A DNA stretch of 63,437 bases, counting the filler, from Sanchytrium tribonematis (taxonomy: Eukaryota), in NCBI GenBank assembly GCA_018985235.1. It is 13 parts of 13 records of this genome, joined end to end, with 100 filler letters (N's around TTAATTAATTAA, not from the genome) between each part and the next. Parts side by side here need not be neighbours in the genome. Positions count along the whole stretch, not along the records: positions 6,975 to 10,356 come from JADGIG010000870.1; positions 10,457 to 13,829 come from JADGIG010000871.1; positions 13,930 to 17,297 come from JADGIG010000872.1; positions 17,398 to 20,761 come from JADGIG010000873.1; positions 20,862 to 24,223 come from JADGIG010000874.1; positions 24,324 to 27,672 come from JADGIG010000875.1; positions 27,773 to 31,119 come from JADGIG010000876.1; positions 31,220 to 34,564 come from JADGIG010000877.1; 5 more parts are not named here. One strand, written 5' to 3'. Made by a program: the position numbers and the translations under genes. Shown one piece after another: positions 7,841 to 62,738 of the stretch. How positions within the stretch are numbered: the first letter of the stretch is position 1; the number at the start of each line of letters is the position of its first letter. Below the pieces are notes generated by a model. It was given only the letters and a program-made list of their open reading frames with translations. It made no database searches and had not been told where the DNA came from.

Positions 7841-9038
7841 TCATTTATTAAATCCATCCAACTCAAAAATACGCTGTGTTTCTAAGAATGATTTTACAAT
7901 CTCATCTGTCACTTGACTTCGCTTCTCTTGAAAATCACCAACAATCTGCTGCAATACTTTAATACACATTCCTTTTAATTCGCCGCTAGTAATTTCTCCT
8001 TTTCGATATCCATTTTCAATATTAGCCAATTCTACATCATCTTCTAAAAAGAATGTTAAATATTGATAAGCAGTATCTACATCTGGATTCCCACCATATT
8101 TTCGATGATCTTCTAATGTATCACGGCCACCACTAAACCCATGCTTGTTGATTTTCTTTTTAATTTGATTTGGCGTATCTGTCAAGAAAATGGCTGAATT
8201 TTCATCAGATGAACTCATTTTAGAATGTGGACCTTGTAAAGCAGGAAAGAATTTAGCAAGTAATAAAATGGGTTTAGGTGCTTTTAATTTATGGCACACA
8301 TCTCTTGTTAATCTAAATGAATTAAAATTACCTAAAATAGGGATCTTGATCAATGGCACATGGGATTAAACAGTGGTAATTACGCGTACCAAACATATGT
8401 GGGAATGAACTACTGAGTGCGGGTGCTGCTTGGATGCTCACAAAACTCAATTTGCCAATAGAATCAGAATCATTGAATCCAAAACATCCCTTGGATTGGT
8501 TGGTTGTGATGGATTTATTGATTCTGCAAATGTTTTTATAAAAGGATGGATTCATGTACTCTGAATTGATGAATATAAATGTCTTTTTCAAATCAAATCC
8601 ACATGCAATAATATCTTTTATATTTTCATATGCGAATTTGGTAGTTTGATCTAAATCTAGATTTTTAAAGTAAAATTTCTCATCATCTGTTAGTTGGATG
8701 ACAATTGGGACATTTAAAGTCTTCTGGAGCCATTGGCAGATGATAAATGGGACTAGATGGCCTACATGCATGGAATCTGATGAGGGACCACGACCAGTGT
8801 ATAAATAAAATGGTTTATCTATAATTTGATGTAGATCACGGTGACTAAAGAATACTTGACGGGTGATTAAATGGTGTAATTTGCCGCATTTTGATGTTAA
8901 TTTGGATAATAAATCATCTGTGATGGGTTGAGTGCCAAATTGTTGGATTAATTTGTTGTAATCTATTGCTTGATGTTGTCCATCGACTATGGCACCTTGC
9001 ACTTGCCATGGATCAATTTTTTGTTCATTTTGTGACAT
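7841..9038 (-). CDS. WRS1: Cytoplasmic tryptophanyl-tRNA synthetase; 2 exons (9038-8332, 8312-7841), 392 aa
   Basis: [37 protein letters not shown] joined to LTRD, KMSSSD, FSGG; one 19-nt intron restores the frame. Confidence 0.95.
8313..8331 (-). other. 19-nt spliceosomal intron GTAATTTTAATTCATTTAG
   Basis: Removal joins DQDPYFR to LTRDV, reproducing the conserved TrpRS motif with no residue gained or lost. Confidence 0.92.
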
Positions 9039-9239
9039 GGGGCAAAAATGGCAAATTGTTTGAAAAAATAAAATGGGATCTGTTGGAATCACAAGAATGG
9101 AAACAGGGTTCCTAGACGTCTAAGACAAGACAGGCGCTTAAGATATATCAGACATTGCTATTGAATAGTAGGGCTCATAATAGGGCTGAGAAGTCTTATT
9201 TATGCTATAAAAGGAGAAACAATTCAATAAATTATCAAG

Positions 9240-10126
9240 ATGATTTTCATTAATTCATTAATAGCTGCACCATTACCAACTGGTAGAGAAGGAATTCCAG
9301 ATGCAGAATTCTCACAAATTCGAAAGCAGTCAAGGCTGCCAAAAAATGAAGGCAAAACATTCCAACAGTTAGTGGCGGAACAGACTATTCCAAAAACTTA
9401 TGGGAGAAATTAATTGGATTTGAAAAAGTTTTTCATTCTTCATGGGTAATTGATGGAGTGCCACACCAAACTTTTGGCAAGAAATTAAAAGACAGACAAG
9501 AAGAATTTAAAGAGGCAAAAAAAAAATTAGGTATTCAAGAATATTTAATGACTCAAGCTTCTGATCCAAGCCAGGTTGCAAGCGAAATTGTAACGAAATA
9601 TCATACGTTATCAGCGAAATTGGAAAAAGAATTTAAAAAAGCAAATTTAGATTTGGCCGCATTAAAAGCTAAAGTCAAGAGCTCAAGGGAGCAGCTTAAC
9701 ATAGAGAGTCTTATTGAGGATTTTACAAGTCAAGGTGTCGAAGCTCTTGGATTGAAGGGTTATGAAAAGCCAAAACTAAGTAGCTCTGAAGTAGAAAAGA
9801 TACTGGAACAGCACCAGATTGATGCTGGTACTGCAAATGCGATTAACCAGAAGCTAAAAAATGTTCTTTTAAAAATAGATACAGAAAATCTCGACGCAAG
9901 AACAGAGTTAGACCGCACTCATCAAGATCTATTAGACTTTTTGAATGGTTCCAAAAATTTTAGATATACTCCTGGTGAATATACTGGAACAATAAAAAAT
10001 CCAAGCCGCCAAGATTACAGACGTGTTGTTGATCTTTCGCATCAAAACATCGCAATGACTAATAATCATCCGGTAGCTGAATTGGTACATCAAGCAATTG
10101 GGAAAGTCGTAGCAATTAATAAATAA
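9240..10126 (+). CDS. Putative secreted hypothetical protein, frame-disrupted (possible pseudogene or sequence error)
   Basis: ATG 9240 MIFINSLIAAPLP follows a TATAAAA box; this frame stops near 9413, while a second frame is open 9350-10126. No 19-nt GT-AG intron repairs it. Confidence 0.4.
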
Positions 10127-10173
10127 ACTTTAAGAATCATTTTATTTTCTTTGCAAATGTTCCCCTCTAACAA

Positions 10174-10356
10174 ATGCCATTAAATCTCTCTAAATCCTAT
10201 TACACACTAGGTGATTCCAATTTACGTGTATCCCCAATCTGCTTAGGTACAATGAATCTATCCATCAACAGTCAAACTCAAAATTGGTACAAAGATCAAC
10301 AAACATCTTATGCCATTTTAGATCAATATATTCACAAAGGTGGCAACTTCATTGAT
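10174..10356 (+). CDS. Aldo-keto reductase (aryl-alcohol dehydrogenase-like), 5' fragment
   Basis: YTLGDSNLRVSPICLGTM...ILDQY..KGGNFID. Confidence 0.85.
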
Positions 10357-10456
10357 NNNNNNNNNNNNNNNNNNNNNNNNNNNNNNNNNNNNNNNNNNNN
10401 TTAATTAATTAANNNNNNNNNNNNNNNNNNNNNNNNNNNNNNNNNNNNNNNNNNNN
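10357..10456. other. Artificial contig spacer
   Basis: N-TTAATTAATTAA-N. Confidence 0.99.
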
Positions 10457-13176: not shown

Positions 13177-13829
13177 TTAAGACATGACTAAAGCGAGTAA
13201 AATCCACTGCATACCTCGCATCGTTATGGCATGATTGGATGATTTTTGATCTTCGACATTTAATTGAGGATCCCAAGCAATACTTTGACCATTTCCCAAA
13301 TTAAATGCGTAAAATGACTCACTCACTTGCACATTATCACTGTCACCATCATCACCAGATCCACTGACCATTGCGGATGCATCTACTGTGACTGAACTGG
13401 CAGATACGGACTTCAGATTGCCATCCACGACGACATTGGAGGACCATGAGAATGATCCACTGTCTGTATTGACTGTATTGGTGCCTTGCGTGACTGATTT
13501 CGACTTGACTGATTGTAATAAATACAAATCGCCACTCTTTTGAAATGGGAAATTGTCAATATAGATCGAATATTTAAATCTAAATGAAATACAAGTACCT
13601 GAGAGGTGTCAATGGTACAGATTGACCATTTTCAGATGCTGTAGCTTGTTGGTCACTTGTGGTTGCCTTGATAGTGATATTGCAGCTATTAATGACCAAG
13701 GAAGACGTAAATGAATAAATTGTGATTCCATCTACTACGACTGAAGATTGAGAAATAGCAGACCATTTACCAGTCTGACCCGTCAATTTAATAAAGTTGG
13801 TAGCCGTATTGATATTTTCATTAGAACTG
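13177..13829 (-). CDS. S/T/V-rich surface protein with C-terminal hydrophobic anchor; 3' fragment, 2 exons (intron 13580-13598)
   Basis: Two ORFs join in frame as PLR/FKYSIYIDNFPF after removal of a 19-nt intron; WDPQLNV followed by a hydrophobic tail. Confidence 0.7.
13580..13598 (-). other. 19-nt spliceosomal intron GTACTTGTATTTCATTTAG
   Basis: Joins ORFs 13580-13786 and 13177-13527 in frame; matches the consensus. Confidence 0.82.
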
Positions 13830-14429: not shown

Positions 14430-15654
14430 GTAAATGCAGTTGTTTCAAATCGCCCTTGAAATTGATCGTATCTCGAATTAAAAAACTCTTCGTCTTACTT
14501 TGCAAATCACATAATCAATAATGTTTGGATGTTGTGGCATCATCTAGTTTACAATCTGCTGTTGCTAAACTTAATTTTAAATTTAATATTTATTTTTAAC
14601 AAAATATTCTAGCTTCTTTTCATTAATTAAACGGTTACAAATGAATAGATACTAGGCGGTCCGTCGTTTTAGATCTAGCAACATCAATCATCCACAACAA
14701 TGTTAAATTTTCGAATATCATTGTGAAGAACACCACATCATTAATGCATTTATCAATATCCGCTGTGTTTTTGTCAATGGCTCTGGAACCACTTCACAAT
14801 ATTAAAACCATACAAAATAACCATGAAATTAAGCATGGGTAATAGGCCTTGGAGTTTTGATGTATTACCATAAATAGACACTTTCGATTCTTGCAGCAAA
14901 TTCTTGTTTTCACACATCTGAAGTTTTAAGAGCTAAAAGGCGGAACTGGTGATTTCTTTGTAAACCTGCATCTCCCTTCTGCGAGTTTTTTCAATGAAAA
15001 GTCCACAACTTCAAATTTGCAGAAGTCTTGGTATTTCAATTTGTATTTGCAAACTAAATGATCTTTGTTTTAATTGCAGCTGAATTGGGCGTTTGGTCAG
15101 AGTCAGTATTGTGATTGGCTTCCAAGCCCTGGATCTTGCATTTGAACTTTACCTTGTATTTAAAAGGGAAAAGAAAGTAATAATCAAAAGAATGCCATAT
15201 AATTGGGCGCCTTTGTTATATTAAAATTCCTTTATAAATAAGAAGCGAATCGTGTGTAAAAAGCTACACGGTTATCCGTAGAACAGGTTTCCGTTAAATA
15301 GACGAACCAAGTAAAGTCATAACTTGCCAAAACGCCGAATTAGAATTAGCTCAAACGCTGCGCCCTTTTTTAAATTACAAGATAAATAATTGCTTTCTTT
15401 CTCAGAGAGCACTCTATTAATGTATCTATCTTTAACTGAAATTTCCTCATATCCATTTGCTTTTCGGCAAAATTTGTGGCTCGAAAATAATGGGAACTCA
15501 GCAGCGACTACAATTTATTGTAATACTTTTCTAGTGAACGGATCAGGATCTGATAGAATAGAGTTTTTTACTACATCTGATATTTCTATTTTTAATCTTT
15601 TGCAAAGTCCAACAATGCAGACTCTCTGAACTGATTTTATATATTGATGATTTT

Positions 15655-16718
15655 CTAGACCTTGTTCAAGGCAAAATTTGTATTTATCGTGAATTCGTTT
15701 CGTTCGGGTTCATTGTTCATCACTTTAACATCCAAAATACAGCACAATCTAGGAATATTCTCTGGGTACTGCTTCCAAATATCATCAAGTACAATCGCAT
15801 CATAATCATCAATCTCAAGCAATAACCAATTTAAACAAAAATCACTATACATATCCCTATCCTTGGACGCTTTTTTAATTAATTCCAAATATCCATGTTG
15901 TTTGTTAATACTGGCTCGTCTTACAAGTTCTTCGGGAAATGTTCCTCCACTGATAAAAATGCTTTGAATAGAGTTGTTTAAAAACACACCAAGTCGTTTG
16001 TTGTGAAAATTTTGTAATACAGTGTCAGTAATATTGGATTGAATGTCTATTAATTCTTTAGATTTGTTAAACTCCAATTTGTATTGCCAGAATGTTTCTT
16101 GTAGTAATTTGTTGTAATAATTATCATGAGGACGCACAAAATGAATCTTGTCTAAATATCTTTTGTATCGAATAAGTGGTCTATCAGAGACAAGAGTCCT
16201 TTTAATTACTTCTACATCTAATAATCTTAAAAATAACTCGATTACATGATCCAATATTTCAAATCCAACTGGAATGCCATGGGAAAAATTTAATTTCAAC
16301 TGACAATCTCTAAATAATTTGTCCATTACATTGTAATAGGCAGCATGATTGTCTTTATTTGCCCGTGCTTCAGACTGTCCAACAAGTGCCCATGGAATTG
16401 AATCATTAGTAAATGTATCGTAAAAATTCAACACATCCTGAAATTCTGATGTGGTCAGAGACGTTACTGCTGAATAAGAAATCCAAATTTAGAGATGTAG
16501 TGTTTTTCATGTGATATCTTGGGATAGGTTCGTAGTACACATCAGAATGATCCAACAAATCGCCAATAATCTGTTTATATTTACTATACAGCCAAGGTCT
16601 TAATTCAAATATACCAAACACCTATGTCATTTGTTTGTAAGCTTGGAAAAACATCTGCTATGTTGTTTATGGTAATGCTTTCCTTAACAAAATGATTTAA
16701 ATATTTAATAGAAGCCAT
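15655..16718 (-). pseudogene. Hypothetical protein split over three frames (probable pseudogene)
   Basis: ORF 15655-16434 lacks an ATG; overlapping ORF 16406-16621 and an upstream MASIKYL segment (ATG near 16718) need two frame changes. Confidence 0.35.
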
Positions 16719-17297
16719 TTGCGGGTTTACCCTATTCCCCTTAGCGATTTTCTTTATTCGTGAAAAGATTTATACATCTTCTATTGTATATTATATTTTT
16801 ATCTCAAAGTTATTTGTTTTCATAATAAAAGCACCAATGCATTTTCAAATAAATTAAAGTAAAAAATCCAGCTTGCAAGGCGCAATTGAAGTGAAGTCAC
16901 TCTGGTCTAGTTTTAACAGAGTAAAGGTCTTTTAAATGTATATATGGATACACCGGGCTTTTTTGACAGGAGTAAACTTGCAGATTTTGTCTTATGATAA
17001 GACGGGTATTTATTTATTCAAAACATTTGACCAGACTCGAATTTACAGAGCGTGTCCCATTTTTAATGTTCGAAGCGAAATTTGCATCACCAATTACAAA
17101 TGATAATATTTACTACAAAATGACCATGGCGTCGATCCGAAAAGAACCTTGATCGAGTGCTATGTAGCTCTGGATTCCGAGTTAACCTTAAAATTTAAAT
17201 TGTTTCGTGTTTCGAATGTCGTCATTTTAGACTTAGCTGGGGTTGAGACGGAGGGCTAAAACGGACTAAAAACTATAAAAAGGTATGAAGACCCCGC

Positions 17298-17397: not shown

Positions 17398-17398
17398 A

Positions 17399-20300
17399 TA
17401 CAAAGATAGCACGGGGAATAAGTGGCTAGATGATCATTTATTCACATTGTTAAATAGAGCCTATCTCGGATTACGAAGAACCGGCAAAGACCAGTCTATT
17501 ATCTTGAATGGCCAGGATGTTCAAGGGAAACAATTGGTCTTAGAACACTCCCTAGATTATTTATGTCAATTAGGCGCACCTCTACAAGCAACGAAGAGAG
17601 ATGAGAAGGTGCACTCTAAATTACAAGCATCATTGACCATTTTCAAAGCATTTACAACCAAATCTGCTCCAAATAGTGGATTACTCTTCAATGTGAAGTA
17701 TAATGAGAAGGGACGTGTTGTAGGTGGTCAAATCACTGATATTCTACTCCCATTGATCCAATTCGAGCAACGATCTGTCACCATTCTCCACGCATTGATT
17801 CAAGGTGCAGATCATTCCCTCAAGAAACAATTCAAGTTGAATACCTCATTTTTCAACTCCAATCACATCAGTAGTGATAAATACGTGTTCCATGATGTTC
17901 ATGAAGCATTCCAAACCCTCCAATTTAGTGATAAAACCATTTCCCACATTTATCAACTATTGAGTGCCATTTTACATTTGAGCACCATTGAGTTTGAGCA
18001 ACATCAGAGTGAAGATAGAGCTTCTATCAAGTTGGCAGATATTGAATATGTGTCCTCATTACTCGGAATCTCCCCTAAATCCCTAGAAACCGCATTAACA
18101 GTCAAAACTACTAAAATTGGAAATGAATATTGCAGTGTCTTTATGAGTGTGAAAGATGCCAGTGATCACAAATATCATTTAATGCAATCCATCTACCACG
18201 CATTACTGGTATGGCTATTAGATTGTCTCAACAAGAAAATGAAATCCTCAAAAGCCGTCAATTCCATTTTATTGGTGGATCCCATTCAACCCATCAAGAA
18301 ACAAAATAGCCAATTGACTGACTTGTTAAGTAATGAATTCAATGAAGTGCTCCACTCTGGATACATTGCATCTCTCTTTAAAGACCAATTAGACCATTAT
18401 CAACAAGATGGTTTAATTTTTAAGAGAATTGAATTCAAGAATAATGACAATCAAATCCAATTACTCCTCAATGAAGACCATGGTGTCAATGTCCTATTGC
18501 AACAACAACAAGAGAATGCATCCAATTCTGTATTAAGTAGCATCCAAGCAGAACATGCAGATAATCCCGCATTTATCGAATGTTCTCACTCCCAATTCAC
18601 TATGAATCACTATTTTGGAAATACGACGTACTCCCAATTCCAATTAGATGCCCACATGTCCAATGACACTACTCAATTATTCATGGGCAGTGCAGAATTC
18701 ACAGCATCTAATAATCCATTATTACTCAAATTATTCGGATCTAAAAACATCCAATCTATCCAATCTCATCATTTCCTTACTTCTAATATCATGACTAGCT
18801 ACCAATCTCATTTATTAAGCATCATGAGTCAATTAAAGCAAGCTCAGCCATGGTTCATCATTTGCATTGATTTAAACATGCAAAACACCAAAGTAGATTC
18901 CAAATTACTCAAATCTCAAGTCAAACAGTATTTATTAAGTGAATTGGCATTACAACGATTAGAAATGCATGATTATGCGCATTATATGAGTTATAGAAAT
19001 ATGATTGACAGATATCGAGATGTATTGCGTAGTTTCAACATTGATGAGTCATTAACACCCAAACAACAGATAAGTCAGTTGATGGAGTGTATGACCGAGT
19101 ACACACGCGAGAATAGACCTTTAAAAGACACAGATAGTGCCATTTCCAATAAATCCAAAAGACGTGGGAGTGAATTAAGCATGCAGAGTGTAGGCGTGGC
19201 TGGTGGGTCCTTTTTAGGCAAGAATACATTATTTATGACCCATCAATGCTACCAGCAAATAGAATTCATGTCTCGTAAATTACAGCACACCATCAAGACA
19301 AAAGGCGATTTAAATGAATCACAACTTTATGCAGCTAGAATTGACAATATTAGCACGTATAGTGACACCTATAGTGAAATGGATGATTCTATTTATGATT
19401 CTGAAGCATCTTCTTTAAATGAGACACTTCAAAGTAGTATTCCTGAGAGCGGAGTGTTTAGAAATGCAGATGGGGATATTATTGGCAAAGATTATGAATT
19501 AATGGAAGAATCTACATCTAAAATGCGTCGTAAATGGGTGTGTTGCACGTGGTGTTTGACTTGGTGGATTCCCACATTCTGTATTAAATGGTGTGGGATG
19601 AATAGACCAGATGTCCAAATGGCATGGCGTGAAAAAGTGGCATTGTGTTTGATTATTATGGGCATGTGCGCATTAATGCTGTTTTTTATTGCTGGTCTAG
19701 GTCCATTAATCTGTCCAAAACAAGAAATCTTGTCTCTTTATGAATTACAATTCAAAAATACAGAAGATGAGCCATTTGCGAGCGCATATGGTAAAATATT
19801 GAGTATGAATGATTTGATTAAAATATCACCTGCGCAACACAATTTAGACCAATTAAGAGAATCGTATGGTGGATTAGATGTCACACCTGGTTTTCCTAGA
19901 ACCCCTGCCACATATTGCACATTTGTGAGTGATAAATCATTGAAATTGGATATAGATGCCAAAGATATCTCAAAAGTGAATGGAACTGCTATTTTTAGTA
20001 GCCATGCGTCTCTTTATCAAGCCACATCCACAGATGGTGATCCACGATCAGTAGGAGAACAACGAATGGATGCTTTTTTTAATAACAAGAAATATCTCAA
20101 ATTCATGTTGGGATGGGATCCAGATATCGTCAAGGGATTAGTCTCTGATAAATTTCTACCGCGTCAAATGGTGATTGTGAATGATCAAGTGTATGATTTG
20201 ACAGTTTATTTATCTAAAATTGGAGATGCAAAATACAGATTTTTAGGAGATGGAATCACAGAATTCTTGAATAACAATGCTGGCAATGATATTTCATCCA

Positions 20301-20761
20301 ATTCTAATTTCATGTCACAATGGAATTCTAGATCTGATTTACGAGATTGTTTTAATAATTTATTCATGGTGGGCGTATTGGATAAACGTAGATCTTTTAG
20401 ATGTCAATTCTCTAATTATTTGTTATTGGCTGCGTCTATCGTGCTTGTGAGCATTATTGGATTTAAATTCTTGGCTGCATTGCAATTAGGCAGCAGAAGA
20501 GAACCCGAAGAACATGATAAATTTGTGATTTTACAAATGCCATGTTACACAGAAGGAGAAGAGAATTTAAAAAGGACGATTGAATCCCTAGCTGCCTTGA
20601 GATATGACGATAAACGTAAATTGTTATTTCTCATGTGTGATGGTATGATTGTGGGTAGCGGCAATGACAGACCCACCCCGCGAATTGTTTTGGATATTTT
20701 AGGTGTAGATCCCAATTTGGATCCAGAACCCCTTTCTTTTCAAAGTATTGGTGAAGGCATG
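17399..20761 (+). CDS. Chitin synthase with myosin motor-like domain (class V/VII); internal fragment truncated at both ends
   Basis: Degenerate myosin head (DQSIILNG, LLSAILHL), LTWWIP, AWREKVALC, cytochrome b5-like VYDLT, PCYTEGE, YDDKRKLL, CDGMIVGSGNDRPTPRIVLDILG. Confidence 0.95.
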
Positions 20762-21169: not shown

Positions 21170-22369
21170 ATGTCAAATCCATATCTTGCTCATAGAGAGA
21201 AGAAAGACAAAGAGAAATTGAAAGAAGATGTTTTTGATGCTGACCTAATCCATAGAAAAAGATCCAGAATTAAATTTAGAATGAATGAGCCCGGAAAGTA
21301 CGAAAAAAAAGCGAAGATAGAAAAGTTAGAAAAGAGAATTGAGCAACGCAAAGAAGCAGCCTTATTGAAGAAAAATGAAGAGCGAGAGAAAGAAAAGCAG
21401 CACTGGTCTCGGGTTCCAATACCAGATGTGGAGTGGTGGGATTCTTGTTTAGTTTACCCCCAATCGCAATACAGTGAGGTTGATCCGAATTTTAAATTTG
21501 ATATTCCTGTTCCACAACTAGCTACAATAGAAGAACCTAAGGGCACAATACCAGTAACTCATTTGATTCTTCATCCTTTACCACCACGAGAGGAGGGAAA
21601 ACCTTTTAAAATTCCTACGTATTTGACTAAACCCGAAATCAAACGGATGAGACGTTTGAGAAGACTGAATGAGCAACAAGAGAAGAGAGATAAGATACTA
21701 CTGGGTGAAATTGTTGAAGAGCCAAAGTTAACTCTTAAAAACTTTTCGAAAGTCTTACAATCAGAAGTGCTTGTGGATCCAACCAAGGCAGAGCAAATGG
21801 TTCTAGACCAAATTGAAAACCGAAAACTAAAGCATGAAGAGCACAACGAGTCTTTCCGTTTGACAAAAGAGGAAAAAAGAGAGAAAAACATCAAAAAGTG
21901 GCACAAAGACCGTAAGAAAAACCTTCAGAGAGTTGTTTACAAAATTTATAAAATGAATCATAAAATTAAGAATAAAATTGATATGAATGCAACCCAAATG
22001 CAAATGACTGGTGTCTTGATTTGGTATAAACAGGACGATGATCAATTTGCATTGTTAGTTGCAGAGGGAGGAAGAATAGCAACAAATAGAATTCAAAATT
22101 TATTAAATAGACGAATTGACTGGAAAAACATGGAGCAAAATAATGATGAAATGGATATTGATTCAAACTCAGATGATATGATCGACGATGATAAGGAAAC
22201 GGAACATACTGAATTGTTATGGAAAGGAAACGTTGATAATTCCATTTTTGAGAATAAAATTGGACAATTTCGCGTCAAGCTATGCAACAAGGAAAGCATT
22301 ATTCCTTATGTTGATCATATTGGTGAAGAAATGAAATCTTACTGGAATATGACTCACAATAAATCATAA
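21170..22369 (+). CDS. PRP3: U4/U6 snRNP protein Prp3
   Basis: NPYL, IPDVEWWD, YLTKPEIKRMRR, DPTKAE, HEEHNE..RLTKEEKREK, MNATQMQMTG, VAEGG, RRIDW, LLWKG. Confidence 0.9.
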   Translation: MSNPYLAHREKKDKEKLKEDVFDADLIHRKRSRIKFRMNEPGKYEKKAKIEKLEKRIEQRKEAALLKKNEEREKEKQHWSRVPIPDVEWWDSCLVYPQSQYSEVDPNFKFDIPVPQLATIEEPKGTIPVTHLILHPLPPREEGKPFKIPTYLTKPEIKRMRRLRRLNEQQEKRDKILLGEIVEEPKLTLKNFSKVLQSEVLVDPTKAEQMVLDQIENRKLKHEEHNESFRLTKEEKREKNIKKWHKDRKKNLQRVVYKIYKMNHKIKNKIDMNATQMQMTGVLIWYKQDDDQFALLVAEGGRIATNRIQNLLNRRIDWKNMEQNNDEMDIDSNSDDMIDDDKETEHTELLWKGNVDNSIFENKIGQFRVKLCNKESIIPYVDHIGEEMKSYWNMTHNKS

Positions 22370-24323: not shown

Positions 24324-24600
24324 AGTTCCCACATCCATCCAAATTGCAGTTTCATCTGCAAATACAATCTGATCACTTGAATAAATAGATAATTTGCTTT
24401 TAACTTGTAGAATATGCTTTGCTACTGATTCAATCAAGTATTGATCATCTTTTTTAACTAATTGTGTTGCTGCTCTAGGTACGAGATTATTTCTTTTTAA
24501 CACTCCCCCCCGGGGGGAGTTGAGCTGCCAAAGACTTTATTCGCACTATTGCTGCTATTTCAACTACAATTGGTGATTTCTTTCATTCAACTTTTTATTT
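24324..24600 (-). mobile_element. Degenerate pogo/Tc1-mariner transposase remnant
   Basis: LKRNNLVPRAATQ (end of CENP-B HTH region) and QIVFADETAIWMD (first Asp of DDE); the upstream frame is broken. Confidence 0.65.
24502..24520. repeat. GC-rich palindrome ACTCCCCCC-C-GGGGGGAGT
   Basis: Perfect 9-bp inverted repeat with a 1-nt centre in AT-rich context. Confidence 0.9.
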
Positions 24601-24910: not shown

Positions 24911-27287
24911 ATGTTCCCCGACTTGAAATCCATTTTATTCATTTATTTAACAATGATCACGCGTCTATATAGTATATCTGCAGATTGCCCAGCAGTCATG
25001 AGCTTCTTACAGGGTTTAAATCTACATATAACTGATCCAGTTTTATATCAAAGTATCCCTGCAGATTGCTGCACGACACACATCAACAATGCACTAGGAT
25101 TCTTAAGCATCTCATGTATCAGTACAAGTCCATTTCATGTCAATTCAATTTACCTTGAAAATGTCAAAATTAATGGAACCATTAAAAGTCAATTTATAGT
25201 TCCCTCTCTCGGATATCTATTGATAAAGTACACGACTCTGAATACAACAATACCTAGTGATTTACCAAATACCCTAATAGGTCTCTATTTAGATTATAGT
25301 AACATTTATGGATCTATTCCGGATACGCTTCCATCTCAATTACAATTATTTTCTGCTGTTTATAATCAATTAACTGGACTACCATCTTCATTCCCAGTAC
25401 TCATTCAAGGTATTTATTTATCAGGTAATAAATTAACTCGACTACCAGCCGTTTTTCCACCAGATACCACCAGTGTTTCTATGGATAATAATCAAATTTA
25501 TGACCAATTATCCCCTTCTATGCCTGGAAAAATGAAACATTTTCACGTATTTAACAATTATATTTACGGAACTATTCCCAGCACCTTGCCAGATACAATT
25601 ACAGAATTATGGATTCAAATGAATAATATTCAAGGAGCTATTCCTGCCACACTTCCAAGCCAACTATCAGATTTTAGAGCATCTCATAATAGACTGGATA
25701 CTTTCTATTCGGTGTCCCAAATAATGCCAACTATGGATTTCAGTTACAACTTATTTACTAAAATGATGCCAATGCCATTAAATTTTGCCACATTAGATGT
25801 TTCACACAATTTAATCTATCAAAATTTAACCCAAATTGACATTAAAAATTATGTTTATTTATATATAAATGACAATATGATTTACGGAACAATTCCTAAT
25901 TTTCCAAATAATCAAAATCATTACCGCTTTGGAAATAATCAATTACAGGGATCACTTCCCGATCTACCAGATCAAATGCGTGAACTGGATGTATCTGGTA
26001 ATAATCTAACAGGTCCAATTCCGATTTTGCCTTCTTATTTAAACGTTTTGAATTTGAACAATAATTCATTCACTGGCAATTTGCCAAAGATTCCTGCTGC
26101 TCTCGATAGTTTTAAAGCTAGTCATAATTTACTAAGTGGTAATTTCTCTAATTTAAATACCAGCATCAGATTGAGTGAATTGGATTTATCTTGGAATAAA
26201 TTTAATGGAAGTTTGGTGGGAATCAAATTTCAATTATATACCTTGGTGGATTTGTCTCATAATCAATTATCTGGTGATATTGATTTAGGATCTTCTACAA
26301 TTAATGATTTAAGATTGAGTTTCAACCAATTTGATTATTTTCCAAAATCATTGCCACAAGCACTAAAAACACTTAATTTGGACAATAATAAGATGCAAGG
26401 CAACATTACATATGATTTACCATCAACCTTGAAAACAGTCGACTTATCAAACAATAATTTGACTGGAAATGTTCCAAAATGGCCAACTCTTGCAAATCGC
26501 ATTTATTATAATATTTCCAACAATTCATTCACTGGTAGCATCCCCCAATCACTACAATATATGGTGACATTGGATATATCTCATAATTACTTGAGTGGGT
26601 GCTTTAATTATCAATTTAATGGCTCCAATTTCTATTTTAATGATAATTATTTGGGTGGGAAAATGAGCTTTTTGGCTCCAAAACAAGTATTTCTTCAAAA
26701 TAATAATATTTTGGATATTGATGTTACTGATTCAACAGCTATGAATCAAAATTGTAGTTTGGCAAATAATCCAATGGCACCTGGAGTGTTTGGTAAAACT
26801 TTCAAAAATCAATGTAATTTGAATGGGATATTTGCAGCTAATGTAAGCTTCTGCAAAATTTCATTAATTGATGAAATCAGAGATGCTATGGGATCACGTT
26901 TATCAAATAATACGATTGTGGCTCCATTTGATTCTAATGCTACAAGTTCCAATCCGAGTCAAACAGAAGCAAATGAAGTGATTATTCGTACTTTTCTATC
27001 ATGTAGGTCGTCTACGCTCTTTCGGAACCATGACAAATGCCCTAACATCCTTCAACAGCCCATATAATAGCAATAATGTTGTTAACAGCGGCGCTACTTC
27101 AACTGAAACTGTATCTCTTAAGCCGTATCACTGGAAATTGCAGCCTCTTCAAGTAGAATGGTCGTATGTAAAATTTGTCAAATTATGCCTCAATGCAATC
27201 ATCATGACAGTAGTATGCATCAAAACACCATTTAGATATCTTTTTAGAAAGCACGTCACTAGTTCCAAAATGACATGGATCAGTTAA
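24911..27287 (+). CDS. Extracellular leucine-rich repeat receptor-like protein; 2 exons (intron 26988-27006), about 785 aa
   Basis: Cys cap (ADCP..DCC..C), many LxxLDLSxNxLxGxIP plant-type LRRs; exon 2 adds a hydrophobic helix and basic tail. Alternative start 24953. Confidence 0.85.
26988..27006 (+). other. 19-nt spliceosomal intron GTACTTTTCTATCATGTAG
   Basis: Joins the LRR ORF in frame to ORF 27030-27287 (VIIR/RLRSFGTMTN); matches the consensus. Confidence 0.8.
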
Positions 27288-50244: not shown

Positions 50245-53200
50245 TTAAAAATTTAGATTCTTTTTTAGAGTCGCTTCTTTCTTAATCGTACCATCTTTTT
50301 TAATAGTAGCTGATTTCACAGATTTCGCACCATCACTTTGGATACTCTTTCTCTTTTCATTTTCTACTATTTTCCTGCTTAATGTTTTAGTGCCTCTTCT
50401 TAAATCCTTTCCTACAAATATAATAGCTGCTAGCACACACAAACAAGTAATTCCAATGGTAATCACTGACAATGTCTCTGCAAATGACCCTGTTTTGGTA
50501 TTATTTGTAAAAAACAAAATCCCACAACTTAGCGTCAAAACACTACAAATCTGACAAAATACATCTGCCAATGTGTGATCACGCTCCACATATGGCTTAA
50601 AATGAATTAAGAATCCAATATATGCAAACACGGTTAATTGGATAATCATGGCTTGCGAAACAATTGAAGAATAAAACAAATTCTGCACCAATAATATAAT
50701 CAATTTCATATATAATTGAGCAGCCACGATAAACTGGGTAGTTGGTTTGAATATCGTGTTATCTGTAATCAACAATCTCGTCAAATTGGATTTCACAGAT
50801 GTTGCAAAACCCCCTTTAAATTTATTTTGATAAAGCCCAATGTGCATTGAAGTGAAATATAATGGAATTCCAACCACATAAATAATCGTAGCCGTTAAAA
50901 AGAATGGGAAATTGTCCTTGTGTGCCCCTGTATAACACTCATATGCTGGTGATTTCAATAAAACCAGTGTTTTATCTTGCCCTGCTCCAAAATCCACGCA
51001 ATTGAAATATCCCAATGCCCAACTGGTTAAACTCACAAATATGAATTGTAACAGTAAATTAAATCCCCTAATTACCAAGAATACATTGGATTTATAAGCT
51101 TCTTTTGTGATGGGTGGTAATTGGATTTTAGTATTTCTCTTTAAAATCAAGTTTTTCAAGTATAAATATGGATAATTTAGAGGGGGTGCAAATACAAATG
51201 CCATAATCAACATAAATACAAGCAGAATAGGTGGCACTATGAACATAAATTCACCTTTTGTAAAGAAATTAATATTTGGATTTAAGCATTCTGGTTTGGC
51301 CAATTCCAAATTAAATGAAAAGAAACTCACTAAACTAAACATTTTCTGTACATTATCACTCCATTTCAAGATAATAGACTTGAAAATATATAAAATCTAC
51401 ATGAAATGAAATTACTTGGAAATAATTGACTGCAATTGAAATGGCTGCAAAATATCTACCAATTTTGATGAATATAAAGATAATCAACACAAATGCGACT
51501 AGAATTCCCACTATAGTCAATATCAACACCGTATTATCCGTTTCAGGGCATTTTAAACAAATAAATCCATCTCTGTAATATTTATCAGAACACACCCCAC
51601 ACCGATCTCCTAATTGTTTGCCATATCCCGCATTACACATGGCAGATCCATTACAAGCTTCTTCTGGATTACAGGCTGCAAACCAATAAGCCCCATTTGC
51701 ATATATTTCATAATATCCCTTTAATCCAGTGGGTAATGAACTACCATCTGCAGAACAAATACCCCCACTTGGACAATCTGCACAAATTGGTACTGTTGCA
51801 TTAGATTCTTTAACACCAAATACATTGGGTACTTTCCCCGTGTTACATGTCAAGCTGGCAACTACTGCAAAACTAGCACTGCTACTTGGATTTCTATAAT
51901 CTGTCAATGCCATGGCTACTTTTAATGGGAAATCACCCACTTGCAACAATTTATTATTCTTATTATCATATTTCCATGTAATATTCGTATTCGCAAATAA
52001 AACAGATTCTGTCACATTACTCGTAAATACCCCAATATTCACTATTTGTAAATTATTTAGTGATTGAACATGATCTGCATTGGTACTACCCACGACTGCA
52101 TCACTAGATACTCTAAATATCCCATCTATAGAATAACTTGGATTGATAAAATGGGATTCCGTGTAATATGATTTAAAATCTACTGAATAGGGCGCATATT
52201 GATTGGTAATCGATGGACAATCCACTAGACTATATTTCATAATATCACGAATCACCATTGAAAATAAATAATTGCCATTTTCATCCGTATAAATATTAGG
52301 TGTCAAATTTTGACCACTTAATGTGGGTGTTCTTTTAATATCAATGATAATGACACCTGGTATAATGGAATTAATTGTGAAATAAATGACTAGATTGGTG
52401 GCTGTTTTATCTTTATCCAAATCCAAAATAATCAAATCTGACAAAGTGCCATTTAAATTCAATGGTAATACATCATTTTTAGCATCTATTTGCCATGTAT
52501 CAGTCGCATTTAACCCATTTTGATCTAATAATAGCTCATAATGTTGTTTATTGTTCTTCAATTCTGCATTCATGTATGATTTAATACGATAAATGGGTTT
52601 AATGACAGATTGCCATGATGAAACATAGTTTCCAATTTGAATTTGAATGCGAGTCACATCCCATTCTGATTTAATCACTATTTTATGATTATTCCAACTT
52701 AAGATAGTCCCATTCTGCACTATCCCAATATCCAAATCACTAAATGCACTAAATTTCATATAAATAGATCTTTGACGATGACACCCTGATAAATCACCAA
52801 AATGATCCCCAATAATCTCAATTTGATTGAATTTATAGTAAGCATACTGTACAACAGGATCCTGAATCACTTTAAATTGATATTGACTGGTAAATGAACA
52901 ATCTTCACTAATCACAGTTGTTTTTAATTGATAATCCCCTGAATTACCATAATATGAACTAGGCACATTAAAACTGAATAAATTAATGGCATTTGTACTT
53001 GGACATTGATCTACAGACAATGTGGATGTGATTTGATAATTTAATCCTTTAAATTCATTCAATTTACGCATAAAATCAATATTTGTTAATTGAAGCGTAT
53101 TTTGAGTAAATTGGACATCTAATTCGTCAAATGTCAATTGTGACAAGGTTGGATCCACACTCGTCTTGGTTCCTGCAGTAAATACACTCTTCATTTGTAT

Positions 53201-56185
53201 TTGACACACATCTGCTGTCCCATTCATTTTAAATTGATATGCCGTGTAAGTATCTTGAAATTGTGGTTTTAAAGTGTATTGCAATGTCATATTTTTAATA
53301 AATTGACTCGTGGTGAACTTGGTACCACAACTAGACCCATTTAATTGCGTATCAAATGATAAATTGGTAAATTTGAATAAATTGATAAATTGAGATTGAA
53401 ATGGCAATACAATTAATGTATTCTCATATTTAATACGATCTAATGCCAATTGATCTGTAAATGTGTAAATGCCATTCCCATATGTGGTGATATTCTCAAA
53501 TTGCATTTTATGGCATTTTGGACCAGATAATTCTAATTGCAATAAAATCATTCTTTTACACGGTGTATATTGTAATAAATCACTCCCTAATGGAATATAT
53601 CCACTAAATCCCAAATTATTCGCATTTTTACTAAAATCTACAGTATTGGTCAAATTGGTAATTGGCCATGATAATCCACTTGTTTTTAATTGTAAAGTGA
53701 ATCCACGTGTGAAATAATCTGTTAATTGAGTATAGATCGTGTTATTTTGGAATAAATTCAATTGTAATTGATTCGATTGTACTACCAATTGATTAAAATC
53801 AATATATTTCAAAATGGGATCTGTGTAATTCTTTCCATTTACAATCACAGTGAGTGGCTGTAATTGAAATTGACAAATGCTACTTCCACTCAAACTCGTA
53901 CTCATTTCAAATCGAGTATTGTTGAATGCACTGGGTACATTTAAATCAATAAATCCATTATAAATTGCACCTGAATTTGAAACAGTAATGGATGTATCGG
54001 ATGGACAACCCTGAAATCCAATAGACCCACTCATACTAAATGAACTAGACATGATATTGTTGAAATACGGAGTCGTGATTAATCTCAATTTCCCATTTTT
54101 ATACGTGGTTGTATTCAACCAATTATTCACTAAATATTTATTGGATCCAGCTGTAAATGAAGTAGAAGTGGATAATTGACATTGACCATTATTCATAGAA
54201 TTATCTACTTTGATATCTAATGCATAACTGGTTAAAATATCAAATGCATTAGAATCTACAGTAATTTTAATTACATTATTAGAATAATCTAAAATAGTAG
54301 CATCTGATGTAATAGATGGCATTGGGGTGCATCCAGAAGGTGTTAGGATGAATTGGATATTATATTGTTGATTATTATAATATTGGAGTGAATTCATGGT
54401 ATTTTGATTTAATGGGATTTTAATTTGATTATTTGCAAATGTGATGGATTGTGTTGATATGGAGAGTGAATTGAGATATGGATCAATAAATATAGTTGAT
54501 TTAGGGATAATTGCAGATGTAGAGGGTCCAGTAGGTGGTGGTAAAAAGCCTCCAGTCGGGGGAAGAGTCACTTGTTTGTTAAATGACATGCTACAGACAC
54601 CAGATACTTCATTAATACTCCCACTTAGTGTGAATTTACTAGATGCAGCAGCCGTGTAATAATAATAATCAAGGGGGAAGGAATATGAATTGGGGTGATT
54701 TGAATCTAAATTGCCATTAATCGTCTCAGTTTTACAATCATTGCTCACTACAAGGACTGGTTGTACTACATTGATATTCCCATATCCACCCATTTGAAAA
54801 TTACTTAAAATCATGGTCAAGTCCGGACTCACATCCAAATTGGTATATTGGTTTAAATACGCATCAAATGAATTGGTTGGAGAGACTTGGTTGGTAAATA
54901 TGAATTCATTCGGGAATTGGATGATAATAGAAGGATCTGATGCATTCATGAATCCAATGACATTATTATTGATATTGGTTGCAAATTTGTAAATGGGTTG
55001 TGGATTAATACCATTTTGAGATTGTAGGGTGAATGTGGTATTAATAGAGTAGTAATTACAATATAAATCAATGGAAAATTGGGGTGATTTGTTGTTCATG
55101 ATGAAATTATGATTGAATTCATTTGGATTTGGGGTACCTTTGTTGATTGTAAATGCATCCAATCCAATTGGAATAACATGTTGGTTGCTAGAGACATTGT
55201 ACATGCTGATCCTTAATGAATTAGAGCCATTCGCACTAAAATAATACGCAGTTGGGGCAGTCGAAGCGAGTTTCACATCCTCCGTAGAAATATCAACCAA
55301 TGAATCTTTGACATATAATCTGTTTTGTGAAGAAATGGCTAGATTTATAATAGAGATATTTTGCACCATATATCTAAAATCATACAAAAATGCATTGGAA
55401 TTATATGCAAATGTGAATGTAAGAGACGCCAAATCACTGCTTGATGCAAAATCAAACATTGGGAATCCTAATGGATCAATACTAGATCCAGAAAGGGGAT
55501 ATTGACTATTCAGATCTGTAAATGTAGTAGTGACAGGTGCACCAGACACAAGAGATAAGGCAGATGCACTTTTGAGATAACACAAGCCAGTACCCGTATT
55601 TTGAGTCAAGTACACGAATTTGTTACTTGCTGTAACAGTGCCAAATTTAACTGTAGCGAGATTCGTTGACGCGGGTAACCATGAGCATTTCACTGTACTT
55701 GATGAACTATAAACAATCATAGTACTAAGAGGGGAATTAGTAGTCAATATTTCAATATGCAGGTCATTTCCCAATTTACTCCCCTTGACACTCGTGGAAA
55801 TAGCCTGCGTTTTACCCAATGTAAGAACACCTATTTGAAAAAGATCCAGGCAAGAATTGGTGATTTGATACTTAAAAATGACATCATTATTCGAACTTGA
55901 TCCTGGAAAATAGACCAATTTCGTAACCGAATTATCAATTTGTGAATAAACATAACTCACGGATGATTTAGCGGTGTTCAAATCACAATCCACCCACTGA
56001 TTCGATTTCGTATCAAAATAAAACATGGTGCTTTGATCTCGAGTCACTGCATAGTAGGTTGATGAAATATCATAAATGGCGCCTCTATCAAATCTAGTAT
56101 CAATTGGTAGAAAAGTAGAGGATGGTCCGAATCTACTTTGTAATCTACTAATATAGATGGCTCCATAGATCAAAGTTAAAAACAT
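50245..56185 (-). CDS. Giant cell-surface receptor-like protein, about 1973 aa, 2 exons (intron 51397-51415): large beta-rich ectodomain, Cys-rich EGF/GCC-like region, multi-TM C-terminus
   Basis: MFLTLIYG signal; CADCPSGGIC, CNAGY...CGVC...YY...C.KCP; spliced VNYFQ/ILYIFK..LKW; PEC; KPY. Confidence 0.8.
51397..51415 (-). other. 19-nt spliceosomal intron GTAATTTCATTTCATGTAG
   Basis: Phase-0 intron fusing the 1609-aa and 374-aa ORFs in frame; matches the consensus. Confidence 0.87.
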
Positions 56186-58756: not shown

Positions 58757-59122
58757 ATGCTGTCTCATGCGATATTACATGAATATAAATCGAATGAATT
58801 AGAAATTGCTAGAAATCAAATGCAAGATTACAAAACACGCATTTCCAAGATATATTTGAAATTAAAAGAAGCTTTAGATTATAAATGCGAGTATAAATGG
58901 TACCACACTTATAAACATAAGGAATTAATGGATGCCCAAATGCGAGATCGTCAAATTTACATTAATTATTGCGTCAAAAAATTATTGATTTATATGGCCA
59001 AAACCCGTGAAATTGAAGATTTAATAAATCTACATCAATTGTATGTACATTATTTATTGTCGTGGTCGTGGAAAAGGTGGCACAAATCCCTGTGGCTGCT
59101 GATAATTATTTGTTGTCGGTGA
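58757..59122 (+). CDS. Hypothetical helical protein; 3' end overlaps the convergent gene
   Basis: GCCC motif upstream of ATG; 121 aa. Confidence 0.4.
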   Translation: MLSHAILHEYKSNELEIARNQMQDYKTRISKIYLKLKEALDYKCEYKWYHTYKHKELMDAQMRDRQIYINYCVKKLLIYMAKTREIEDLINLHQLYVHYLLSWSWKRWHKSLWLLIIICCR

Positions 59123-59999
59123 AACATATCCCTGATAATTTTGATACGGCGGCATTTGTTGCGTATTTTGAGGTTGTATGCCCGAGTAATATTGATTCTG
59201 TGGCATGCCTTGTGGTACATTTTGTGGCATATTCTGATATGGCATGGGTTGATACGGCATTTGAGAATATCCCATTTGTTGATTCATTTGTGGCTGATGT
59301 GAAGGATGTTGAGGATGTGGCATCGTCTGATACGGTACTTGTGCCACATATTGTGGAGAATGATTAGGAGATGTCATTTGTGGCATTTGTTGCGACATTG
59401 GAGGATTAGATTGTTGAGAATATTGTGATGACATTGTGGGATATTGCATTTGCTGAGGGATTGGTTGATTCATTGGCTGATGACTGGGATGATTTGGGTG
59501 TGGGAGAGATGGATAGGGCATTGCATTCATTTGAGATTGCATTTGATTTTGATTTGAAGTGGGAATCATGTTAGAGGGGTAATTTGTGACAGGGTGATTG
59601 GGTTGATGCGTGGCCTGAATATGGGATAGAGAAGGATACTGTGGCTGGATTGGCTGTTGCACTGGTTGCATGGGCTGCTGGACTGGTTTCTGTACTGGTT
59701 GCTGAACTGGTGACTGAGTAGATTGCGTTGGTTGTTGCACGGGAGATGGATTTGATTTGACTGGTGATTGCAATTTATAACAATCTGGTACTTCTAATCC
59801 AAGTCCATCCATTAATAACTGGCCATTCACTATCCCTGTTTCTGTGTGAGTGCCATGAATCATTTGAGACATTGGCACAATTTCATTCATAAATAAAAAT
59901 CCCTCTAATTGACTAATCACTTGATTATTCTTGTAAATTGGAATTGAAAATGATTTCAATTTAGATTGATGATGGTACCATTCTTTTAATGGTAAAGAA
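59054..59999 (-). CDS. Pro/Gln-rich low-complexity protein, 3' fragment
   Basis: Frame open from the contig edge; QPVQ and YPS repeats. Confidence 0.7.
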
Positions 60000-60099
60000 N
60001 NNNNNNNNNNNNNNNNNNNNNNNNNNNNNNNNNNNNNNNNNNNTTAATTAATTAANNNNNNNNNNNNNNNNNNNNNNNNNNNNNNNNNNNNNNNNNNNN
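60000..60099. other. Artificial contig spacer
   Basis: N-TTAATTAATTAA-N. Confidence 0.99.
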
Positions 60100-60117
60100 T
60101 TTCTAAAAGAAAACGAC

Positions 60118-60435
60118 CTAGAAATTTAAATAAGAGGTTGGATATTCGGCCAAATGTTTCTGTGACTTCAGCAACTTATATTTCGCACGTATTCGGGACA
60201 TCAGAACTTTGTAATCTTCATGAAGGTTGTTCTCAATTGGAAATGTTTGAACCAATTCCGATAATTTTTTAGATACGGTGTTTTCACTTACCAAAGACAG
60301 TTGAAATTTATAGAAACCTAATTCTTTACCCATTTCTAAACTAGCTGCATGACCCAATTCGTAACCAGAATTGTAGCTAGATTTTTTGATATCTTCCACT
60401 GGGGTCGGAATATCTTCAAAGTCAATGGTATTCAT
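60118..60435 (-). CDS. Lto1/ORAOV1 (Yae1_N family) Fe-S assembly adaptor-like
   Basis: GX3 repeats SYNSGYELG..MGKELGFY; FP.EN; RIRAKYKLL. Confidence 0.65.
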   Translation of the reverse strand: MNTIDFEDIPTPVEDIKKSSYNSGYELGHAASLEMGKELGFYKFQLSLVSENTVSKKLSELVQTFPIENNLHEDYKVLMSRIRAKYKLLKSQKHLAEYPTSYLNF

Positions 60436-60457
60436 AAAATCTGGCTGACACAGGGGA
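60436..60457. promoter_or_regulatory. Putative 22-bp bidirectional promoter with a single GGGG/CCCC
   Basis: Between divergent ATGs at 60435(-) and 60458(+): AAAATCTGGCTGACACAGGGGA. Confidence 0.45.
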
Positions 60458-62738
60458 ATGGAAAATCTTGAAGTCCTTGTTCAAAATGTACTGGGCAAGA
60501 TTCAGATAGAAGATGAATTGCAGTTGTGCACTAAGCTATTAAATTCAACTTTTAAATCCAATATAACTTTGTCAAGTGTGGACCATTTAATCAGAAAAAA
60601 ACTTGCAAAATCAAATTATGCTTTAGAATACATTAATGCTTTTAATTTATTAAGCCAACATAATGTTTCGAAATTAGCAGAAATTTTGCAATTTTTGTAC
60701 ATACTATCTGGACAGCAAAATATTTCAAAACCGGTTATTCCCTCAATCGACTTTATGGAACAAGGATTTATGGCTCAAATTCCTAAAAGTACGCAAATAG
60801 AGATGGATGTGGATGAAAAAGATCTTCCGGTAGTTTCTGATCAAGAAAAAGCTTTAGTGAAAGACCTGTTTTTTGTTTTACAAGGAATTAGTGGAAATTT
60901 AATTGATTTATCTGAAGATAAATTAAAATGCAAAATTAGTTTCAAGGACAATCGTCAACCATGTTTAGATCTTCTTATGATTCTAGCAGAAGTGGCACTG
61001 AATTTTCGGAAATTTATCAGCACCTCCACAAACAGTTTCCTAATTCGCTCGATACAAATTGGAGTTGAAAATGAACTACGCAAAATGCAGGAATTGTCAA
61101 TAAGCGCAGAGGGAGTTTCTCTTAGTGTACTGCACGTTTATGCTCATGTATTTCCTTATATTTATCGCTACCATTTTATCTATAATATATTTAAAAATAT
61201 AGATATATTTAATATAACAATTCAATCGAGTGACCAGATACTGTCATATTTGACCGCAGGCTATCACAGTGGGGATGAGTTGAAAGTGGAAATTTGTGAG
61301 TCTTTTCTTGCTTTAATTTCGAAGCCTTATGTAGAACAAATTTTTAATTGGATGGTGTACGGAGAACTCAACGACCCATTCAATGAGTTTTTTATTGTTA
61401 AAAATGATGAAAATTTAGACTTTCCGAATGAACATTTTTGGACAAAAGCCTTTTACTCAAGATCTTCTACAATACCTTTTCTGAATGATATAGAACAACG
61501 AAAATGTATTTTGGAAGTTGGGAAATCTTCACGACTGCTTTCATTATCAGATAACAGCTCACTATGGGTGATCGAAAATTCCAAACTATTTTCGAAAAAT
61601 GATCTAAACTTAAGGGACCGCGAGACAACACTAAGATTTATCAAGAAACTAAAATTGCATATTGATAATCGGCTCATGGTTGTATTCAAAGATAAATTTG
61701 GCCTCAGGGAATGTCTCAAATTTATGAGAGATGTGTTTTTTACCAGAAGGGGCGATTTGTTGCTCGAGATTTTTTATCAATTAAAAGACTATCTGGAAAT
61801 GCCTGCAAAGACGATTATTTACGAAGTTTCCGCTGTTGTTGATATTTGCTTTCGACAAAATTATACCAATTCTCCTTTATTTAATATCAAACTTTCCACT
61901 TTAAATTTTAAAGAAAACAGCCTCTTGTGGTCATGCTTGTGCTTCAGACCCGAGTTCCCATTTCCGATGAATAATTTTTTTGATTCAAAAATAATTAAAA
62001 GATACCAAGGGATGTTTGGCTTTTTCAATTCTCTCAAGTATGTTTACTTTAGATTAAACTATTTGTGGAAAAATTTAAAATCAATTTCTATACCAATAAG
62101 AACTAATGTTCCACAATTTAAGATGTTTTTAAGAAAAACCGCTGTTTGGAATCAACAATATGTGTCTATTATTTCTCAAATATTATTTTATAGTTTGTAT
62201 GAAGTAGTAGAAAACGATCTTAAGTCCTTAGACAACTATGCAATGAAAGAGGGCATTGGATTTCAAGAACTTATTGAAATGCATAACAATGTTGTGAAAA
62301 ATCTCAGAAGTTCGACAAGTTTAGAATCCGATCCGCAAAATCCAAATTTTAGCCTAATTTGGGAACTGCTTCAGGAGCTGCATAAATACACTCTTCAAGA
62401 AGTAATCATTGTTTATTTAGAGTGAAATTTTTAGCAATTTGGAACGACTTATTTTGTTTAAACAAAAGCTAGAATTACAATATGCGGGGCAAGTTCCATG
62501 GGATGATACAGGTATTTATGCAGAAGTCGAGACTATTGAAAAAAAATGTCAAATATTTGAATCTAGTAACATATTTTTAAAATCAAGAGCAAACTCATTT
62601 GTGTCAAATATTGCGAATTCTAAAGAGCCTAGCTTTCGCAAACTCGCGCAGAGAATTAATTTTAATGCCTATTATCAATTTGACGTAGCTAATAGCGCCA
62701 CAGCCACCAGTCTGTTCGCTTCACCATTGAGAATGTAA
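60458..62738 (+). CDS. Gamma-tubulin complex component (GCP3/Spc98-like); 2 exons (intron 62402-62420), 753 aa
   Basis: LVKDLFFVLQGISG, WMVYGELNDPFNEFFI, FW...IPFL, ILEVGKS, RGDL, and exon 2 ending LAQRINFNAYY. Confidence 0.85.
62402..62420 (+). other. 19-nt spliceosomal intron GTAATCATTGTTTATTTAG
   Basis: Phase-0 removal attaches the conserved GCP C-terminal L..R.NFN.YY block in frame. Confidence 0.88.

Follow-up and report, generated by a model that had tools for sequence, protein, structure and literature searches.

The window analysed here, a stretch of 63,437 nt from the assembly GCA_018985235.1 of Sanchytrium tribonematis, consists of 13 contigs joined through N-spacers; it is AT-rich (GC 32-39% per contig, the GC content of the S. 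tribonematis genome being 34.6%; PMC8371127) and packed with about 60 eukaryotic genes, nearly all of which run without interruption. On contigs 3, 4, 8, 11 and 13, however, a gene is broken by a segment of exactly 19 nt that begins with GTA and ends with TAG, and the genes affected encode cytosolic tryptophanyl-tRNA synthetase (TrpRS), an orphan protein, a leucine-rich repeat (LRR) membrane protein, a giant multi-pass membrane protein and GCP3. As a preliminary description of the window had reported, removal of the segment mends the frame at each of the five sites, and every open reading frame (ORF) is lengthened: counted in codons from stop to stop, TrpRS grows from 263 to 419, the orphan gene from 82 to 210, the LRR gene from 722 to 789, the giant gene from 1619 to 1983 and GCP3 from 658 to 756. 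Each frame is also restored by 28-54 alternative GT/GC..AG removals, so that the length of the putative introns needs evidence beyond frame repair.

Such evidence is provided by TrpRS (7841..9038, minus strand), whose exons 9038-8332 and 8312-7841 join into a protein of 392 aa with the Pfam domain tRNA-synt_1b on both pieces. The junction at its intron (8313..8331, minus strand, 19 nt, phase 2, GTAATTTTAATTCATTTAG) is set by six full-length homologues: without the 19 nt the protein is colinear with all six of those aligned and shows no indel against any of them, which bears out the earlier claim that this junction forces a length of 19 nt. The intron is missing in Amoeboradix gromovi and in two environmental relatives (3/3), and copies of a 5-nt direct repeat border it, none of the other four sites having such a repeat beyond the AG. 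Across the site, a contig of sequencing run X1 matches the window without a single difference or gap, this run being possibly the window's own source and not an independent one. Upstream of the gene, 9044-9272 is a short dispersed repeat that matches several further run X1 contigs, and in the ORF behind it (9350-10123) no Met comes before codon 66.

The giant gene (50245..56185, minus strand; exons 56185-51416 and 51396-50245, joined 1973 aa) constrains its intron (51397..51415, minus strand, 19 nt, phase 0, GTAATTTCATTTCATGTAG) in a similar way, the junction being free of gaps in 15/15 aligned homologues, none of which has the intron; these were picked among the 19 best of 150 listed matches. 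Full-length homologues of 1942-1967 aa occur in S. tribonematis (P0131), in A. gromovi (P0132) and among ENA proteins. The protein has no Pfam family at cut-off; it belongs with other receptors of 1100-2000 aa to an expanded family whose members combine a cysteine-rich stalk with a multi-pass C-terminus and in several cases have LRRs at the N-terminus.

The GCP3 gene (60458..62738, plus strand; exons 60458-62401 and 62421-62738, joined 753 aa) carries Pfam GCP domains and has GCP3 as its best PDB match, exon 1 covering the solved structure to residue 775 of 907; the site of its intron (62402..62420, plus strand, 19 nt, phase 0, GTAATCATTGTTTATTTAG) is common to relatives. Exon 2 has its first Met at residue 104 of 105 and matches the GCP3 C-terminus weakly (pairwise E 0.036). 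Motif and frame define the intron of the LRR gene (24911..27287, plus strand; exons 24911-26987 and 27007-27287, joined 785 aa, Pfam LRR_1), which lies at 26988..27006 (plus strand, 19 nt, phase 1, GTACTTTTCTATCATGTAG); its splicing would add a C-terminal hydrophobic helix that also occurs in a paralogue fragment close by (51% identity, E 1e-15), and a search for a longer homologue of this tail gave 0 matches among 18 candidates. Across the LRR intron run X1 has an identical contig as well as a paralogue (21 differences over 287 nt, no gaps), and lists no joint that skips the 19 nt, the 5' overlap amounting to just 25 letters, too few to count as bridging. Motif and frame alone likewise define, with no homologue, the intron of the orphan gene (13580..13598, minus strand, 19 nt, phase 2, GTACTTGTATTTCATTTAG), where the frame is likewise mended by taking out 13 nt up to the same acceptor; this gene (13177..13828, minus strand) has its 5' end beyond the contig and a hydrophobic C-terminal tail, and matches no Pfam family at cut-off.

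The five segments share a consensus, GTA[A/C]T...TnAT[T/G]TAG, in which 10 of the 19 columns are invariant (G1, T2, A3, T5, T12, A14, T15, T17, A18 and G19) and in each of columns 6 and 13 a single intron differs from the other four, the pairwise identity ranging from 11 to 16 of 19. The canonical fungal donor has G at +5; here T occupies this position in 5/5, three of them beginning GTAAT. All five also contain a branch-like TnAT with its A at position 14 (-6), which may be the branch nucleotide. A strict form of the motif is hit five times at 19 nt and three times across the other 47 lengths between 13 and 60, and since it was built post hoc from the same five introns, leave-one-out is the fairer test: among the 318 19-nt GT..AG stretches of the window four of the five rank first and the GCP3 intron fourth, and among 12,888 stretches of 14-60 nt four rank second and the GCP3 intron sixtieth. 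A looser motif finds eight stretches at 19 nt, against a mean of 1.7 (p ~0.02 after 48 lengths).

With five introns in 54 kb of coding DNA the window holds about 0.09 per kb, while Allomyces has 1.3 per kb (PMC8476143). The preliminary description had seen no longer intron, and no further credible one of any kind was found among 169 ORF-join clusters, a scan blind to long in-frame or untranslated-region (UTR) introns. Long genes run through without interruption, among them a myosin-motor chitin synthase (17399-20761, plus strand; 1121 codons on its contig) and a Dbp10 helicase (719 codons). The coding strand of 61 ORF pieces (54 kb) contains no in-frame candidate of 18, 21 or 24 nt with the motif, and insertions of at least 4 residues unique to one homologue yielded, in three homologue sets, no in-frame candidate of 15-24 nt and a single 30-nt compatible case, in P0131. 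The high-scoring stretches 41373-41430, 54036-54068 and 16310-16329 were dismissed as antisense, as lacking a clear insertion relative to homologues, or as breaking the frame of an ORF. Directly behind the stop of ORF 59057-59998, at 59030-59048 (minus strand), there is one more 19-nt stretch of the form GTA..TAG, having T at -8 and A at -6, which may be a 3' UTR intron or a product of chance.

As far as its protein sequences tell, the source lineage is Sanchytriomycota, in a clade with A. gromovi as the nearest named relative. For TrpRS exon 1 the identity is 82% with A. gromovi and 80-81% with two ENA proteins, no other named match among the 120 listed exceeding 64%; for GCP3 the identity with A. 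gromovi is 58%, and the TrpRS tree unites the window, A. gromovi and two ENA rows in a clade with 100/100 support. In columns 96-100 of the TrpRS alignment the window and its three close relatives have a common 5-residue deletion directly before a motif, a possible marker of the clade. The ENA assemblies contain at least two more sanchytrid-like lineages on contigs of several kb (P0002, P0004, P0124, P0125, P0133-P0135 and P0281), a resource for a phylum of two species.

The evidence from these relatives consists of ORF calls made on DNA, which read into introns and leave peptide traces of them. In all four sanchytrid-like clusters the GCP3 ORF ends 4-7 residues past the same junction, and each read-through tail opens with Val, in keeping with a GT start. 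Back-translation of the A. gromovi tail under GTA..TnAYnYAG allows 19 nt only, a pattern to which 73 of 4034 Val-starting 7-mers from the six frames of the window also conform, whereas the tails of P0125 and its twin P0129 rule out 19 and 20 nt and fit 21 nt with the same 3' motif. In the giant family, the ENA proteins P0281 and P0135 begin out of frame some 70 residues upstream of the window's intron site. Removal of 19 nt best restores the likeness of P0281 to P0131 (97 vs 31 for the next GT..AG option, 99 vs 54 unconstrained) and that of P0135 (38 vs 4 among GT..AG options), and both of these inferred introns match GTAMT..TNAYNTAG. With P0125 and P0129 counted once and P0124 left out, 19 nt holds in 8/9 cases and an A at -6 fits 9/9; the one-sided 95% lower bound on the share of 19-nt introns is about 55% from the five of five in the window and about 57% from the eight of nine. 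Scans of JGI metagenomes brought no further relative: the GCP3 alignment gave 183 pattern-matching stretches, 0 of them confirmed, and the 80 loci obtained with the TrpRS alignment stayed at or below 66% identity, with no sanchytrid-like one among them and no split match broken at the window's site, a scan that tells little on ancestry since it favours intron-poor matches.

Taken together, these observations make it highly probable that the five 19-nt inserts are real introns, and it is scarcely less probable, judging from their ends and inner motif, that they are U2-type spliceosomal introns of a sanchytrid fungus which have shrunk near a lineage-specific minimum. U2-type splicing is indicated by the GT..AG ends and the branch-like TnAY together with spliceosomal genes: the window encodes the U4/U6 small nuclear ribonucleoprotein component Prp3 (21170..22369, plus strand; Pfam PRP3 E 4e-37, Prp3_C E 1e-17), and the annotation table of A. 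gromovi lists Prp8, Brr2, the U2AF small subunit and Snu13 (PMC8371127 supplement). The preliminary description had taken the segments for tiny spliceosomal introns in a fungal genome and proposed, further, that a fixed-length system had evolved here independently. The first claim draws support from the ends, the motif and the exact TrpRS and giant-gene junctions, and the second stands as regards an origin independent of ciliates and nucleomorphs but not as regards strict length, which the GCP3 of a relative contradicts. The lengths look instead like a narrow range with a fixed 3' geometry, that is, a set spacing from branch A to AG; across the genome, intron lengths are likely to peak at 19 nt and to vary little, it is unlikely that the sanchytrid lineage as a whole keeps strictly to one length, and the trait of near-19-nt introns was likely present before the window's organism and A. 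gromovi diverged.

Because the 3' geometry is constant, a fixed branch-to-AG spacing combined with a minimum donor-to-branch span is the favoured explanation of intron length. A14 (-6) in its TnAY context would act as the branch point, the acceptor would be set by its distance from the branch without a pyrimidine tract, and the donor would be a short GUA(A/C)U with U replacing the usual G at +5. A lower limit on the donor-to-branch span would impose a floor near which deletion bias keeps the length, a model discussed for tiny introns in PMC10245619, and the outcome would be a peak at 19 nt followed by a short tail (probably 21 nt in one relative), the two additional bases of the 21-nt case presumably sitting between donor and branch. 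In the human B complex, with its long U6/5' splice site and U2/branch helices, donor and branch have to be about 52 nt apart (PMC6692369); with only 14 nt available here both helices could not form together, which implies an altered assembly in which they may be shortened or formed in turn. This disparity would make sanchytrid small nuclear RNAs (snRNAs) and proteins a handle on minimal intron length.

Several points weigh against this reading or restrict it. No snRNA gene of the window is matched by Rfam (0 matches), so that the proposed snRNA pairings stay hypothetical; exon 2 of GCP3 taken alone has neither a Pfam GCP nor a PDB match; and the orphan and LRR junctions are placed by motif and frame. 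In the relatives, the length in P0125/P0129 excludes 19 nt and equals 21 only if the stop codon is TAG, being longer otherwise; the P0124 tail leaves the length unfixed; and without the splice constraint 19 nt ties with 7 nt in P0135. The tally as a whole comprises five introns read as DNA and four deduced from peptides, and the TrpRS tree alone does not put the sanchytrid-like clade within Fungi.

That the segments merely mimic introns, as assembly or amplification indels or as pseudogenising insertions, is a notion that can appeal to the fragmentation of the assembly, which has a fold-back-like junction in at least one place, and to X1, the only run that contains this DNA, which may itself be its source. 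Yet if the cause were a 1-nt error, 6 extra residues would remain in a conserved TrpRS motif and in the giant protein, at places where homologues carry no insertion, the 10 invariant bases common to five sites are not expected from errors, the GCP3 break recurs in three further sequence clusters from other sources, and TrpRS and GCP3 are normally essential genes; we therefore consider artefacts extremely improbable. The same holds for removal outside the spliceosome, whether of the Ire1/HAC1 or tRNA-endonuclease type or by ribosomal bypass. Fungal HAC1 introns, cut by Ire1, are of like size (about 19-26 nt), but introns of this type have paired stem-loops with CNG-CNG cleavage sites, a combination that does not occur at the present boundaries, where hairpins are not common to the sites and five different folds (-1.3 to -8.4 kcal/mol) are predicted, and the GT..AG boundaries, the branch-like motif and the spliceosomal genes named above also speak against it. 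The RTATCCTT donor and TCCTTAAC branch that characterise U12-type introns are, by inspection, absent from 5/5 introns.

Among the readings that accept splicing, the view of the preliminary description that the spliceosome of this lineage removes 19-nt introns only agrees with the five of five in the window, with the three cases anchored by homology (A. gromovi, P0281 and P0135) and with the lack of 18- or 21-nt in-frame candidates across 54 kb, and it may hold inside one species; it is nevertheless rather unlikely as a general rule, given that P0125/P0129 cannot carry 19 or 20 nt at the shared GCP3 site and retain the 3' motif at 21 nt, and that described tiny-intron systems show two or more lengths (PMC10245619). 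We attach equally little likelihood to the converse idea that 19 nt is one peak of a wider distribution with longer introns elsewhere in the genome: the sample is small, the window covering some 60 genes and the bounds given above leaving ample room, and microsporidia retain a few long introns next to short ones (PMC6349667), but the ORF-join clusters produced no credible longer intron and the chitin synthase and Dbp10 genes are uninterrupted. Harder to dismiss, although still doubtful, is that many of these introns were gained recently from a small mobile or self-copying unit and are not shrunken ancestral introns, as the lack of the TrpRS and giant-gene introns in all homologues compared, the different site used in P0281 and P0135, the mutual likeness of the five and the direct repeat around the TrpRS intron would suggest. 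Against this, the GCP3 site is common to all four clusters, AT richness and fixed signals account for much of the likeness, and the repeat is missing at four of the five sites; the patchy distribution, with the GCP3 site shared and the TrpRS and giant-gene sites not, is compatible with recent gain and equally with differential loss. The boldest synthesis, that the phylum Sanchytriomycota splices almost only 19-21-nt introns by means of a remodelled spliceosome reading GUA(A/C)U and a -6 branch A, in Stentor-like convergence, and is still gaining introns of exactly such size, appears to us slightly more apt to fail than to hold.

Tiny introns are on record from heterotrichs (15-16 nt), Mikrocytos (16-17 nt) and nucleomorphs (18-21 nt; all PMC10245619), and myxozoan intron medians reach 22-27 nt (PMC13644364). 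The preliminary description had rightly named nucleomorphs and heterotrichs as precedents and had overlooked the closest case, Mikrocytos mackini/Paramikrocytos (Rhizaria), likewise a parasite with few introns (224) that are very short, nearly of a single length and conserved in sequence (PMC10245619); these are 16-17 nt, RNA-verified and in an unrelated lineage, whereas the sanchytrid introns are fungal, of 19 nt (21 inferred in one relative) and known from DNA. In Stentor the branch A lies at position 10 of 15 or 11 of 16, six from the end as proposed here, the commonest intron begins GUAAU, with U at +5, as do three of the five sanchytrid ones, and the interior is U-rich likewise; Stentor differs in being free-living, in having thousands of introns of 15-16 nt and in a donor-to-branch distance of 10-11 nt vs 14 nt (all PMC9505925). 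The -6 position that the two have in common suggests a structural floor shared by their 3' sides. The nucleomorph of Bigelowiella natans resembles the window in its GT..AG introns of 18-21 nt, termed "19-nt introns" in PMC2483917, but has about three per gene and no discernible branch A (PMC6009652 and PMC2483917), unlike the intron-poor sanchytrid with its invariant branch-like motif. Encephalitozoon cuniculi is also a holomycotan parasite with few introns and strict donor and branch motifs, but its introns measure 22-76 nt and are often poorly spliced, while the sanchytrid ones lie in the middle or 3' parts of genes, two of which are normally essential (E. cuniculi: PMC3629993). Yarrowia, Trichomonas and Giardia are similarly intron-poor, with the branch site kept a fixed number of bases before the AG and no pyrimidine tract; theirs is a strong CTRAY-type branch, the Yarrowia introns being rather long, as opposed to the weaker TnAY and minimal length seen here (PMC2483917).

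In the searchable literature the shortest fungal introns found measure 22 nt, so the 19-nt sanchytrid introns are apparently the shortest spliceosomal introns in Fungi. A search that left subscription journals and some supplements aside also found no treatment of sanchytrid introns: the word "intron" appears in PMC8371127 and PMC10459994 in a reference title only, apart from one unrelated occurrence in those supplements of PMC8371127 that could be searched. If true, the reading of these segments as near-minimal U2-type introns would add an independent origin inside true fungi to those of heterotrichs, Mikrocytos and chlorarachniophyte nucleomorphs, with the splicing of yeast and Cryptococcus as a close comparison. 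It also has a practical side, since the published sanchytrid proteomes are TransDecoder calls on DNA contigs (PMC8371127), which entails that intron-bearing genes are truncated or split in them. The earlier expectation that gene predictors would split such genes is realised in EukProt, where the TrpRS of the window's organism appears as two pieces of 236 and 125 aa and its GCP3 ends in intron read-through; genes lost from view in this manner could inflate the gene-loss counts for the group.

The remaining observations concern the make-up of the contigs. A single contig of 21.9 kb (34665-56557) stands among others of 3.3 kb and contains many orphan ORFs with a hydrophobic leader at the start, as well as an ORF with GIY-YIG and a CCHC zinc knuckle (38665-39216). 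The region 14444-17297 is gene-poor and includes a broken ORF (16409-16621 and 15658-16488, minus strand), which is not mended by any consensus intron and is probably a paralogue or repeat in decay. At 24324-24530, repeated sequence and a C7-G6 run coincide with the place where run X1 contigs fold back, the LRR-tail paralogue beginning abruptly beyond it, and this junction is possibly an amplification chimera or the border of a repeat.

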